Positions 16,504 to 20,000 of a stretch of 20,000 bases of DNA are shown here, one piece after another. Both the position numbers and the translations under genes were made by a program. This DNA is from an uncultured virus (IMG/VR IMGVR_UViG_3300021079_000006) (Duplodnaviria > Heunggongvirae > Uroviricota > Caudoviricetes): positions 46,055-66,054 of the IMG/VR virus record IMGVR_UViG_3300021079_000006. The stretch is one strand, 5' to 3'. Positions within the stretch are counted from its first letter, which is position 1. Each line of letters starts with the position of its first letter. The notes under the pieces were generated by a model. The model saw nothing but the letters and a program-made list of their open reading frames with translations, did not search any database and had not been told where the DNA came from.

Positions 16504-17214
16504 TTAGAACGTCCTAGTCTCCCACAACTTCCGAGCGCCCGCAACATCAATGCTTGACTTCCCGATGCGGTCATTCACTGCGTTATGCAGACAAACTCCC
16601 CACGCAAAGAATTCACCAAAGTCAGCAGGGTTAAGTGCCATCCATTCTTTAAGGTGTGCCTCGCACGGGCAACCGTCAAACGGGAGAGAAGCCACCCAAG
16701 CCTCAAGCCAGTATCGCATGTCACCAAACGGGATGCATGTGGCATCAGCCCGGAGGCTATAGAGGTGCAGCTCCGCCCAGTACCGGGCTCCCTGCATAAG
16801 AATGCGGCTCTTTTGAAGTTCGCTACGCTGCTCAATCCGTTCAACCTCATTGCCGACATCAAACACCCATTTGTCGTGCGTTTCCCAGTCCGTGGACGTG
16901 GCTATTGCGGCTTCCCGCTCCAATGCCATTGCTACGACGTGCTGACGGTGATACGGGGCAGCAGGGTCGTCCCCGGGCTCCTCGAGCTTGGGGTTGTCGG
17001 TGTCAAACTTGGTCACCTGCTCATCGGTAATGCCGTCGCGTTTGCACAAAAACGCTTCGACCATCTCGTGGATTGCCACGAGCAGGACCGAAACGTCCCG
17101 GCCACCGTACTCTGGGACCTTGAGCATTAGTGCTCCATCGGCCAACCATTCCCAGTCGCCAGCCGTTGGGTAACGCATTGCGCTGGGGTCTACAGTCTTA
17201 ATTTCAATCCTCAT
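16504..17214 (-). CDS. HExxE metallohydrolase-like domain fused to an Erv1/Alr-like sulfhydryl oxidase
   Basis: N-domain RYPTAGDW...IHEMVE...PYHRQH...E; C-domain GARYWAELH, LPFDGCPCEAH, FFAWGVCLHNAVNDRIGK. Confidence 0.75.
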   Translation of the reverse strand: MRIEIKTVDPSAMRYPTAGDWEWLADGALMLKVPEYGGRDVSVLLVAIHEMVEAFLCKRDGITDEQVTKFDTDNPKLEEPGDDPAAPYHRQHVVAMALEREAAIATSTDWETHDKWVFDVGNEVERIEQRSELQKSRILMQGARYWAELHLYSLRADATCIPFGDMRYWLEAWVASLPFDGCPCEAHLKEWMALNPADFGEFFAWGVCLHNAVNDRIGKSSIDVAGARKLWETRTF

Positions 17215-18475
17215 CGAATGTTGATAGCCCGATTTCTTTCATCTTATCAATTTGCTCACGCACCTGCTCAATCGCCCCGGTCTTTCCCTCGAGGTAGTAC
17301 CCCTCGACAAGCTCGGCGTTCTCGAGCGCATGATCAAAAGCTTCTTCTAGCGTGTTTCCAAGTCCAACAACTGCGCCAATTTCCGGGAGTCCGCAGGATT
17401 GTGGAATAACAAAGTACCCACGGTCATCTTTGTAAATATTCCGCAATTTAACGTAATCTCGGATCTCTTCAGGAAACCGCAGCGGTTGCCAATTCTTGTC
17501 TGCAAAGCTGCTATGAAGCATGATCTCCGCCCCGTACTTAGCAACGGGCTCCGGGTTGATCACAACTCCGTTTGCCCCGGCCCAGATACACTCGGCCAAA
17601 TTTTTGTACTGTTCTTGGTAAAGCTCATTCGGAGGACTAGGAGCCCGAGCGCAGAAATCGATCATGTACGGCTTGTGGTCAGCCCCAATGCGGATCTCGG
17701 ACGAGAAAAAACCACGATAGCCGTAAGCCTGAAACACCGGGACCATGCGGTCGTTGAATCGGCGAAGAGGTTCCGGGATGTCAGCGTAATTCTTGAATAC
17801 TGATGCAAATCCGCAGTCTTTAACTTCAATGCCGCTAATCAGCGTCTTGGGAAATTGGCCGTCAATTGTCCAAGCATCGGTTCCAAATTCAATCTTATCG
17901 TCGAGAGCCTCTTCGACCGTGAATTCGATGATGTCTTTGAACCTACCAAGACCCCACTCAACCTCGTCGAGTTTAGGCTCCACAAGGTCGTAGGAGAGGC
18001 TGTGGAACGTTTCAAACGTCCCACGGTACTTGTCAGTCTTGACGTAGACATTGGGGTGGTCTTTAAGGAACTCTCGAAGATCCGCCATGCCCTTGACGTG
18101 AGTGTATTGACCCACAGGCATGTCTATCGCCTTGAGGATCTCTTTCATGCCCTCCCGGTTTAACTCGAGGCATTCCCCGGTCCGAGACCCCCAGACAACC
18201 TTGCCCATTTTGAGCAAGTGTTCCTGTTCCCATCCAAAATAGATGTCCGGGAAGCAGAACAGGTCAATCTCGTCAAAGTGTGGGCCGTAGATTGAATCTA
18301 CAAGCTCCAGCTCTTCAATGCCTGTGCCGATTTTGGCGAGGTTTAGCCTCGGAAAAGCAGACTCCCACGGGACGTAGTAGTACACTTTCTTGTACGTCTT
18401 CGCGAGCTTGATTGCCAACTCGCAGAACAACCCGTTATCAACAACGAGGCAAACTACGTCTTTAGGGTCTTTCAT
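17204..18475 (-). CDS. PurD(GARS)-like ATP-grasp ligase, divergent
   Basis: Pre-grasp Rossmann start, LELNREGMKEIL, VYVKT, VEEAL, GYRGFFSSEI, IDFCAR, and GARS-C-like VVGLGNTLEEAFDHA. Confidence 0.75.
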   Translation of the reverse strand: MKDPKDVVCLVVDNGLFCELAIKLAKTYKKVYYYVPWESAFPRLNLAKIGTGIEELELVDSIYGPHFDEIDLFCFPDIYFGWEQEHLLKMGKVVWGSRTGECLELNREGMKEILKAIDMPVGQYTHVKGMADLREFLKDHPNVYVKTDKYRGTFETFHSLSYDLVEPKLDEVEWGLGRFKDIIEFTVEEALDDKIEFGTDAWTIDGQFPKTLISGIEVKDCGFASVFKNYADIPEPLRRFNDRMVPVFQAYGYRGFFSSEIRIGADHKPYMIDFCARAPSPPNELYQEQYKNLAECIWAGANGVVINPEPVAKYGAEIMLHSSFADKNWQPLRFPEEIRDYVKLRNIYKDDRGYFVIPQSCGLPEIGAVVGLGNTLEEAFDHALENAELVEGYYLEGKTGAIEQVREQIDKMKEIGLSTFDED

Positions 18476-18675
18476 TTTTTCTTTTTTACAGGCTTTTTCA
18501 TTTTTGCCAAAGTCCCCATTTTTGCTGGTTTGGCGGGGTTTGCTGTCTTTGCAGACTGCTTGAATGCCTTTGATGTTGGAGCACCCTTGGCTCCGGGCTT
18601 ACGCATCTTTTCGCCGCTACCAGCAGCAATGCGTTTCCGTTTAGCGTTTACGTTAGCGTAGAGTCCTTCTTTCAT
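18472..18675 (-). CDS. Lys-rich small phage protein (67 aa)
   Basis: GLYANVNAKRKRIAAGSGEKMRKPGAKGAPT motif recurrent in aquatic phages; 18 of 67 residues are Lys; ATGA overlaps at both ends. Confidence 0.75.
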   Translation of the reverse strand: MKEGLYANVNAKRKRIAAGSGEKMRKPGAKGAPTSKAFKQSAKTANPAKPAKMGTLAKMKKPVKKKK

Positions 18676-18728
18676 TTGCAGTTCCAACGTTTGAGTGATG
18701 CGGCCTTCCGAGTTACGTTTTTTGGCAT
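18672..18728 (-). CDS. 18-aa mini-ORF
   Basis: MPKNVTRKAASLKRWNCK*; starts 1 nt after the upstream stop, and its TGA overlaps the next ATG. Confidence 0.5.
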   Translation of the reverse strand: MPKNVTRKAASLKRWNCK

Positions 18729-18729
18729 A

Positions 18730-20000
18730 TTATTCTTCGTCTTCTCCTTCAGCTTCTTTTCGCAGTTTTTCTGCCGCTTTGATTGCTTTTTCTTTTTCCA
18801 TCAATTGCTTCAAAAGTCCTTTATTTGGTGACTTTACGCCAGTCAATTGAGCCTCATCGGCCTCGGACAAGAGTCGCACTGTTTTCCCTTTACGATCCAC
18901 TTGGAACAAACCTCCAGCTTGGATGATGTCCAAAGAAAACTTGGCGGCGTCAGCGTAGTCCGCTGGTTCTGCTCCGCTGGTGGCCGCGCCGTACTTCCCA
19001 AACAGCTCCTTCTCATTAAACCACAAGGCGGCTTGCATGTCAGCAATCGAAACATTAATCCCGGCCTGAGCGAGCCTAGCCTGAGCCTGTTCCATTGTCG
19101 TCTGTTGAAAAGCACGCTCATTACTTGCCCGGGGGGCGGCAAGCGGCGTCGTTCGATCTTGAACCCAATTCTTGGCGGCTCTTCGTAATTCGGTTTTTCC
19201 CTTGAAGCTGCCAGTTCTGAACACTTTTTCGAGGTGCTCCGCAAACTGAAGCAGTGCGCCACTATCTTCCAATAATTTGTGAAACTCTTTTTTGGAGCCT
19301 TTAGGGGCGTCCTCGCCGTAGAGGTAAGGCTCTTCGACTCCTTTTTTAATAAGCACTCGGTCGGTGTACTCTTTGCCTTTTTTGATGGCTTGATTCCGAT
19401 TGTATTCCTCAATCAACGAGTCTTGGAACCGCTCAAATTGATGCCCCTCCTTGAGAGGATCATACTTAAATGAGCGACCAAGAATTCGATTCCACGTTCG
19501 GGTATACCAAAGGTCGGCGGTGAGGGTCGAGTAGTCGCCATGAAGGTTATTAATAAACGATCCGATTTTTGGCCCAAAGACCATAAACCCGGTCACCATT
19601 TGATTTTTACCGCCCTCAACAGACAGCGGCTCCCCGTTGTAATACAGGGAAGTGTCTTGCTTCAGATTCTTGTTCCAATTTGCAACAGTGTCCGTTTTGA
19701 ACAAAAGGGTTCGGAGCTGGCTTGGGGTATGTCTTGTCAGCAACTCGTGCAATTTTAATATGTTGTTTTCAATCGCGGCAGTCTTGTCGCCAAACGTGCC
19801 ATGCAGTGCGGTGACAATCTCTGGAAGAGTTTTGCCCTGCTCCAGCATTAGAGTCACCCGAGTTGCCATCTTTCCATTCTCGAAGACGTCGTTGCCCTGA
19901 GACGCAATCCCGAGAACCGCATCGAAAACAAGGCTCTTGTCTGCGTCGTGCTGGGGAGACCCAACCTCGAGCCACGGAAAGAGTTGCGAGTACATTCCCT
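18730..20000 (-). CDS. C-terminal part of a large (probably virion-associated/polyvalent) protein with an HhH glycosylase-like domain
   Basis: Frame is open to the window edge; motifs LGIASQG, FGPKIGSFINNL, LTADLWYTR, ADMQAALW. Confidence 0.55.
   Translation of the reverse strand, partial: GMYSQLFPWLEVGSPQHDADKSLVFDAVLGIASQGNDVFENGKMATRVTLMLEQGKTLPEIVTALHGTFGDKTAAIENNILKLHELLTRHTPSQLRTLLFKTDTVANWNKNLKQDTSLYYNGEPLSVEGGKNQMVTGFMVFGPKIGSFINNLHGDYSTLTADLWYTRTWNRILGRSFKYDPLKEGHQFERFQDSLIEEYNRNQAIKKGKEYTDRVLIKKGVEEPYLYGEDAPKGSKKEFHKLLEDSGALLQFAEHLEKVFRTGSFKGKTELRRAAKNWVQDRTTPLAAPRASNERAFQQTTMEQAQARLAQAGINVSIADMQAALWFNEKELFGKYGAATSGAEPADYADAAKFSLDIIQAGGLFQVDRKGKTVRLLSEADEAQLTGVKSPNKGLLKQLMEKEKAIKAAEKLRKEAEGEDEE

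Follow-up and report, generated by a model that had tools for sequence, protein, structure and literature searches.

An Erv/ALR-type domain with a Cys-Pro-Cys centre in a tailed bacteriophage

Do tailed bacteriophages encode enzymes that form disulfides within their hosts' cytoplasm? The question is raised by one gene in a 20,000-nucleotide stretch of uncultured viral DNA (positions 46,055 to 66,054 of IMG/VR record IMGVR_UViG_3300021079_000006), referred to here as the window. A 2026 paper states that no such disulfide machinery has been described in phages. A literature search covering titles and the openings of abstracts, with subscription journals and supplements outside its scope, found no description of a phage Erv or of a CxC motif next to FAD. 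The preliminary description of the window proposed that the gene carries an Erv1/ALR-type sulfhydryl oxidase domain with CxC in place of CxxC, and that it gives the phage a route to cytoplasmic disulfide formation.

Architecture of the phage protein

The gene encodes a protein of 236 amino acids whose C-terminal part holds the features in question.

16504..17214, minus strand: two-domain open reading frame P0001, an HExxE domain fused to an Erv/ALR domain, 236 amino acids (AlphaFold pLDDT 94.3, pTM 0.83)
16510..16806, minus strand: Erv/ALR four-helix domain, predicted to bind flavin, amino acids 137-235 (PF04777 match; VIA-align)
16663..16671, minus strand: C182-P183-C184, the predicted redox centre (invariant in alignments of 56/56 and 29/29 sequences)

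The Erv/ALR signatures by which the domain was first recognized are all present in the reading frame and in the order described: G142-x3-W146-x2-L149-H150, L177-P178-F-D-G-C182-P-C184-E-A-H187, W205-x3-L-H210-N-x-V-N214-x-x-I-G-K and W231, with residue 141 beginning at 16794 as reported. They amount to more than a chance resemblance. The Pfam profile for Evr1_Alr (PF04777) matches amino acids 145-231 with 29.3 bits, above its cut-off of 27.6 (E 1.2e-6), and the top match of the protein among PDB sequences in a phmmer search is the African swine fever virus protein pB119L (3gwl; E 7.5e-7). A profile built from 29 Erv-domain sequences reaches 3gwl with an E of 1.1e-13, and Erv/ALR proteins account for every one of the 15 PDB sequences that it matches at E<=10. 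In six-frame searches, PF04777 exceeds its cut-off in 10 of 12 matches in related genomes (two from this record), and control genomes yield no match over the cut-off. PHROGs and NCBIfam hold no model for the 236-residue protein, an Atlas search gives no usable match for its Erv part, and tblastn against 50,697 GenBank phages returns nothing, as is also the case for the putative capsid protein.

An AlphaFold model built on a 56-row alignment predicts the fold expected of the family, with Erv-domain helices at 137-159, 163-176, 184-194, 199-217 and 224-233 that form a four-helix bundle plus a short fifth helix (pLDDT 94). The top VIA-align match of this model is again pB119L (Z 14.0, rmsd 2.4 A over 97 residues, 27% identity). 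Erv1, Erv2 and mimivirus R596 follow at Z 12.1-13.2, so that six Erv chains span Z 12.1-14.0, while QSOX and baculovirus P33 score 6.0-6.3 and the first unrelated fold 5.9. Foldseek agrees with VIA-align on the Erv fold. Homology of the C-terminal domain to Erv proteins is near certain.

In Erv structures, the W-x3-H of helix 1, the H-N-x2-N of helix 4 and a terminal tryptophan take part in FAD binding. The flavin-site residues of the phage domain align with those of 3gwl and ALR. Conservation was assessed in an alignment of the query with 55 of 68 homologues, omitting one near-duplicate, one partial sequence and 11 matches to the N-terminal domain only. Among these 56 full-length proteins, G142, W146, H150, P178, C182, P183, C184, H187, W205, H210, N211, R216 and W231 are invariant, and N214 is present in 55. 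The domain is predicted to bind FAD, and very probably does so.

The same alignment bears out the replacement of CxxC by CxC and the conservation of both redox-centre cysteines. The canonical FAD-proximal C-x-x-C is absent, and C-P-C takes its place in 56/56 sequences. C184 aligns with the second cysteine of the Erv CxxC, the first cysteine is shifted, and P178 is followed by a loop with two extra residues. In the available text of PMC10598087, CxxC is named as an Erv signature. Because CPC replaces this signature, the domain is a variant Erv rather than a plain member of the Erv/ALR family. In one fused relative, P0207, both redox cysteines have been lost.

A second conserved cysteine pair, which could act as a shuttle, was not found among the 56 homologues. 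The preliminary description had drawn attention to additional cysteines at 160 and 208; these occur in 9/56 and 1/56 homologues, respectively, are incidental, and are ruled out as a shuttle pair. According to the portions of PMC3509050 available, many compact viral Ervs likewise lack a shuttle pair, and Cys-X-Cys shuttle disulfides are known in cellular Ervs. No hydrophobic segment suggesting export was found in the 236-residue protein (best 19-residue hydropathy 1.3).

The remainder of the record places the gene in a phage. PHROG and Pfam matches include a small terminase, RusA, Sak4, a DnaC-like loader, an endolysin, collagen-like tail fibres and an internal virion protein, a set that identifies the genome as that of a tailed phage on sequence grounds. 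Capsid, portal and large terminase are labelled here from position, size and conservation, since no library model matches them. A reading of the Erv gene as an artefact, arising from a chance motif match or from giant-virus DNA misassembled into a phage contig, could draw on a fault in the assembly. The ends of the record overlap by ~3.5 kb at 68-91% identity (G000:C1:1-3531 against 62706-66054, the latter being window positions 16652-20000), and the 66-kb record is a chimeric assembly of two strains at its ends. This overlap gives a second Erv copy (G000:27-728), which was considered as a paralogue and ruled out because it comes from the related strain. The 94-kb contig behind L013 and L019 holds both gene versions of the terminal overlap. 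Two sequencing runs that contain the stretch almost in full are metagenomes of lake water and may be where it came from, and no RNA dataset is listed among the runs containing it. The artefact reading is nevertheless refuted: dozens of independent phage contigs carry the same gene in the corresponding slot, five of 10 near-complete carriers are direct-repeat-complete, and the fold match is clear (Z 14.0). The phage origin originally proposed for the gene thus holds.

The N-terminal half of the protein and the gene that precedes it form a second unit.

16822..17214, minus strand: N-terminal HExxE domain, amino acids 1-131, three strands and four helices (conserved H49, E50, E53, H92, E99 and C57; also found as a stand-alone phage protein)
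17204..18475, minus strand: PurD-like ATP-grasp gene, 423 amino acids (family profile matches PurD structures, E 2.4e-20; 11-base overlap with the start of the Erv-fusion reading frame)

The HExxE domain is modelled with a pLDDT of 94.5. The HExxH zinc motif of zincins is absent from it, and H49-E50-x-x-E53 is instead invariant in 27/27 HExxE proteins, as is E99. Its resemblance to known folds is weak. VIA-align of the two-domain model gives Z 5.1 to selecase and 4.9 to PprI, the best Foldseek match of the lone domain is 6mdw with a non-significant E of 0.14, Pfam finds only weak stray matches in the 27 proteins, and the Atlas assigns the domain to clusters of unnamed viral proteins at 0.95. 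The domain probably carries a metal site.

The HExxE domain tracks the ATP-grasp gene rather than the Erv domain. Its motifs are intact in 20/20 dereplicated loci that include the ATP-grasp gene but in 2/12 that lack it (p 1e-6), whereas CPCxxH is kept in all 12 lineages that lack the ligase. Among 21 genomes, the HExxE motifs are intact in exactly the seven with the ligase, three of which have no Erv. Where the ligase is missing, 10 close pairs give dN/dS values of 0.10 for the Erv domain and 0.12 for the HExxE remnant, which indicates purifying selection on both; the remnant would probably stay as a structural appendage. Stand-alone HExxE domains exist in many phages and lie beside PurD-like genes in the three loci examined (L076-L078). 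In unrelated phages, the PurD-like ATP-grasp and HExxE pair adjoins the largest virion genes (L076:10359-11702; L077:10297-11682). The HExxE and Erv domains are therefore two independent modules joined in one chain, and the ATP-grasp gene is the partner of the former. The fusion noted at the outset is real, and the domain regarded as unrelated to Erv proves to be one that is tied to the upstream PurD-like gene.

These patterns also bear on whether the Erv domain acts as a third enzyme alongside the ligase and the HExxE domain, in a small pathway where it would oxidize a thiol-bearing product. The fusion, the 11-base gene overlap and the presence of all three in 20/32 dereplicated loci are what such a pathway would produce. 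However, Erv is kept without the ligase in the other 12/32 loci, and the ligase and HExxE domain occur without Erv in 3/7 near-complete genomes and in unrelated phages (L076-L078), so we regard this pathway as highly improbable.

CxC Ervs and their cysteine-rich neighbours

The CxC centre was described as a peculiarity of this protein, but the wider family does not bear this out. Of 1.84 billion representatives, the Erv-domain profile matches 3117 at E<=1e-3, and the best 150 matches comprise 99 CxC, 45 CxxC and six other forms, a ranking that favours relatives of the query and does not give the CxC share of the whole family. The CPC family of the 236-residue protein supplies 11 of these 99 CxC rows, in which the middle residue varies (S 24, P 17, A 11 and others). 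CxC and CxxC Ervs can be aligned with gaps at the loop only. Shorter stand-alone Erv forms escaped a word search but were recovered by the profile search. A search with one stand-alone CxC Erv matched a single Mollivirus record and nothing else. We are not aware of any FAD-proximal CxC Erv that has been demonstrated to be active.

The suggested phylogenetic comparison with NCLDV proteins was carried out as a quick tree of 100 Erv domains over 106 columns, which is unrooted and leaves 55 of 97 branches open. In this poorly resolved tree, nearly all CxC rows split from the CxxC rows with a support of 90, the CPC family falls among the CxC rows, and canonical giant-virus Ervs form one clade (92) that adjoins the phage CxxC forms. 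The comparison therefore yields a separation of CxC from CxxC and, for want of resolution and a root, no direction of transfer is drawn from it. One giant-virus bin (G033) holds a CxC Erv in addition to a canonical CxxC Erv. Phage-like CxC Ervs are present on the giant-virus contigs L270:5992-6270, L297:5995-6315 and L523.

Elsewhere among phages and prophages, Erv comes after tape-measure and tail genes and directly follows a cysteine-packed gene; in the Verrucomicrobia LW23 prophage (L437), for example, the gene upstream of Erv is cysteine-rich. Phage-type Ervs, clustered at 60% identity and sorted by eye on the tree, make up 54 lineages, of which 46 have an upstream reading frame. The upstream gene has at least 4% cysteine in 32 of these 46 lineages, compared with 11 of 296 control reading frames elsewhere in the same loci, in counts that are uncorrected for relatedness. 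Canonical giant-virus Ervs have such a neighbour in 1/10 cases. In L367, a cysteine-rich domain and Erv are fused in one protein. This pairing is the strongest evidence for the formation of disulfides in virion proteins by phage Ervs, the CxC type included, and supports such a role by association. Thirteen of 15 Erv loci in GTDB lie in Planctomycetota or Verrucomicrobiota records, and the remaining two look like misbinned giant-virus DNA.

Some further arrangements were seen in these loci. Several Ervs are fused to glycosyltransferases, and CxC forms of this kind come after cysteine-rich tail genes (L251:5893-7740; L279:5905-7221; L265:5980-7131; the GT4 match is clear and the GT8 match weak). 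A 155-residue protein with 10 cysteines (G016 L223:2524-2991) has an N-terminus, C-x6-C-x2-C...CPHG, that by eye is similar to extensions carried by several stand-alone phage Ervs.

A CxC centre raises the possibility that CPC is not catalytic, and that the domain is a flavin-holding or metal-binding module (Zn, Cu or Fe-S) that chaperones cysteine ligands of virion proteins. A CxC ring is strained and departs from the CxxC of the family, the cysteine-rich neighbours could bind metal, and the CPC protein Mia40 is reported, in the accessible part of PMC7511737, to carry an Fe-S cluster. Against this, cysteine-rich genes lie upstream of CxC and CxxC Ervs alike (15/19 and 17/25), the two types align gap-free apart from the loop, and all flavin-site residues are invariant. 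A non-catalytic role seems distinctly improbable on this evidence, and thiol oxidase activity through CPC is quite probable.

The catalytic cycle for a CPC domain can be taken from Erv chemistry. A substrate dithiol would attack the exposed C182 of the C182-C184 disulfide; C184, in the Erv position beside the flavin, would then hand two electrons to FAD; and O2 would accept them from FAD to give H2O2. The two-residue longer loop may let the CxC ring occupy the usual place of CxxC, and no shuttle pair would be needed, as in compact viral Ervs. There is a precedent for this motif in that CPC is a working redox motif in Mia40, as the available text of PMC4951193 describes.

An optional gene beside the virion operon

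In the lineage of this phage, the Erv gene sits in a fixed slot right after the virion genes, at their border with small accessory genes. The end of the virion operon is marked within the window by a third gene.

18730..20000, minus strand: 3' end of a giant cysteine-free gene (3468 amino acids in the copy at the start of the record; Kinase-PolyVal domain), marking the end of the virion operon and the site of the Erv gene

The giant cysteine-free product is probably an ejected virion protein. Its full copy (G000:C1:2261-12667, minus strand) has a weak GNAT match in addition to the Kinase-PolyVal domain and is a likely polyvalent protein. Upstream of Erv lies either the PurD-like ATP-grasp gene or this giant gene, and none of the seven lineages with an upstream reading frame has a cysteine-rich neighbour.

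The gene is optional. Among 21 near-complete records recovered by a capsid search (81-97% identity), Erv is present in 10, five of them direct-repeat-complete, and absent by both family profile and Pfam from 11, four of them direct-repeat-complete. One of the 11 (G013) may be falsely scored, since the contig breaks off at the slot. Carriers are dispersed over two core-gene trees, and near-identical neighbours differ (G007 lacks the gene; G005 and G009 have it). Genomes with and without Erv have the same invariant cysteines, six in the putative capsid protein, eight in a 192-residue neighbour of the portal and five in a 713-residue tail protein. After correction, none of 84 variable cysteine columns tracks Erv presence (best p 0.011), and no gene matches it in a co-occurrence analysis of the 21 genomes. 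A difference in portal cysteine count (p 0.024) was dismissed as unconvincing, as it involves one truncated reading frame and ten tests. Searches for thioredoxin and glutaredoxin (PF00085, PF00462) gave no match in 22/22 genomes, with controls positive in 14/14, although divergent folds could escape these models. Relatives that keep the same virion cysteines without any Erv argue against an essential virion pathway in this lineage. What survives of the proposed phage disulfide route is the family-wide link between Erv and cysteine-rich tail-end genes.

Several other cysteine-bearing or unusual genes occur in these genomes. The putative major capsid protein (G000:C1:35141-36355, minus strand), which has no PHROG or Pfam match, has some of its six invariant cysteines near both termini and is a candidate for capsid cross-links. 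Next to it lies a gene for an FGE-sulfatase-like protein (G000:C1:36417-37400, minus strand) with a signal-peptide-like start. The 192-residue protein beside the putative portal (G000:C1:43643-44221; L012:8643-9221, minus strand) keeps its eight cysteines in 21/21 relatives, has no family match and includes two CxxC pairs, which may bind zinc instead of forming disulfides. An 80-residue CxxCxxC module follows the 713-residue tail gene (G000:C1:17543-17782, minus strand; G016 L223:511-2519), and some relatives have it in duplicate, with added domains that vary and are rich in Cys or Gly, in the manner of a plug-in receptor-binding adaptor. Interspersed with the tail genes of G000:C1 are glycosyltransferase and methyltransferase genes (24393-27124).

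We lean towards a reading in which the Erv domain is an accessory thiol oxidase that, at a late stage of infection, puts disulfides into those virion proteins that have cysteines, while they are still in the host cytoplasm. Candidate substrates would be the putative major capsid protein (six invariant cysteines), the 713-residue tail protein (five), the cysteine-rich N-termini of tail fibres and the 80-residue tail-tip adaptor. As the gene is optional, relatives that lack it would depend on oxidation by air once the host has lysed. The same oxidase might instead be aimed away from the virion, as an exchangeable accessory gene that acts on host thiols or a host enzyme, or through H2O2, and so alters redox conditions inside the infected cell. 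Its patchy presence over both core-gene trees, the lack of any covarying virion cysteine and its position next to small accessory genes would suit this role. Yet the wider phage family is tied to cysteine-rich tail-end genes (32/46), and the slot right after the virion genes is fixed. We therefore consider an off-virion target unlikely, and put the prospect that virion proteins are the substrate in this phage, overall, at slightly better than even.

A broader reading can be offered tentatively; it is less likely than not, and more doubtful than the reading for this one gene. Tailed phages, mainly of Planctomycetota and Verrucomicrobiota, might run their own cytoplasmic disulfide enzymes. These would form a large radiation of Ervs, so far undescribed and in good part with FAD-proximal CxC, that folds cysteine-packed tail proteins. 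The gene studied here would be an active member, some giant viruses would carry the CxC type beside a canonical Erv, and the phage radiation may be a reservoir for giant-virus and eukaryotic Ervs. A phage Erv family contradicts the statement that phages have no such machinery described, reopens the origin of Erv, and opens to testing the question of how phages assemble disulfide-bonded particles in a cytoplasm that is reducing. If the FAD-proximal CxC centre is borne out, it represents new redox chemistry for the Erv family. To oxidize cysteines in the phage's own particle proteins is the likely use of the optional Erv gene, and one that has no earlier description in phages. An oxidase of ~100 residues evolved for the bacterial cytoplasm could also serve as a cytoplasmic disulfide tool, for which yeast Erv1 is now in use.

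Comparison with known systems

Cellular Erv1/ALR and Erv2 proteins (3w4y, 4e0i, 1jr8, 3o55 and 2hj3) share the four-helix fold of the phage domain at Z 12.3-13.2. They combine a FAD-proximal CxxC with a distal shuttle pair and reside in mitochondria or the ER, whereas the phage domain has no conserved second pair. Mia40/CHCHD4 shares the substrate-oxidizing Cys-Pro-Cys motif (PMC4951193, available text). It differs in having an unrelated fold and no flavin of its own, and is reoxidized by Erv1, so that it is a chemical precedent only. The middle residue of the CxC motif varies across Ervs (S 24, P 17, A 11 of 99 in the best 150 matches).

The fused domain invites comparison with minimal zincins (selecase 4qhf, PprI 8sln and SPRTN 6mdw), in which three strands likewise precede an HExx-bearing helix. 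This likeness is weak (Z 4.6-5.1), and the zincins have HExxH, whereas the phage domain has HExxE and is coupled to a PurD-like ATP-grasp gene.

The NCLDV pathway of the E10R/A2.5L/G4L type employs a thioredoxin-fold relay protein, for which no PF00085 or PF00462 match exists in 22/22 phage genomes. A pathway of that type would be expected to have a core gene whose presence tracks virion cysteines; here 11/21 relatives lack Erv and 0/84 cysteine columns follow it. Each of the seven NCLDV families has Erv among its core or shell genes, according to PMC10598087, and the gene is optional in this phage lineage. The lineage also differs from other phages in the pairing of Erv with a cysteine-rich tail gene (0/7 versus 32/46 lineages).

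The compact NCLDV Ervs, represented by pB119L of African swine fever virus, are the closest counterparts. They give the best match in both sequence and structure, have the same W, H, H-N-x2-N and W residues at the flavin site, and are likewise viral, without a shuttle disulfide or any sign of export. In contrast to their CxxC, the phage domain has CPC and a loop that is two residues longer, and it is encoded by a tailed bacteriophage as a fusion to an HExxE domain.
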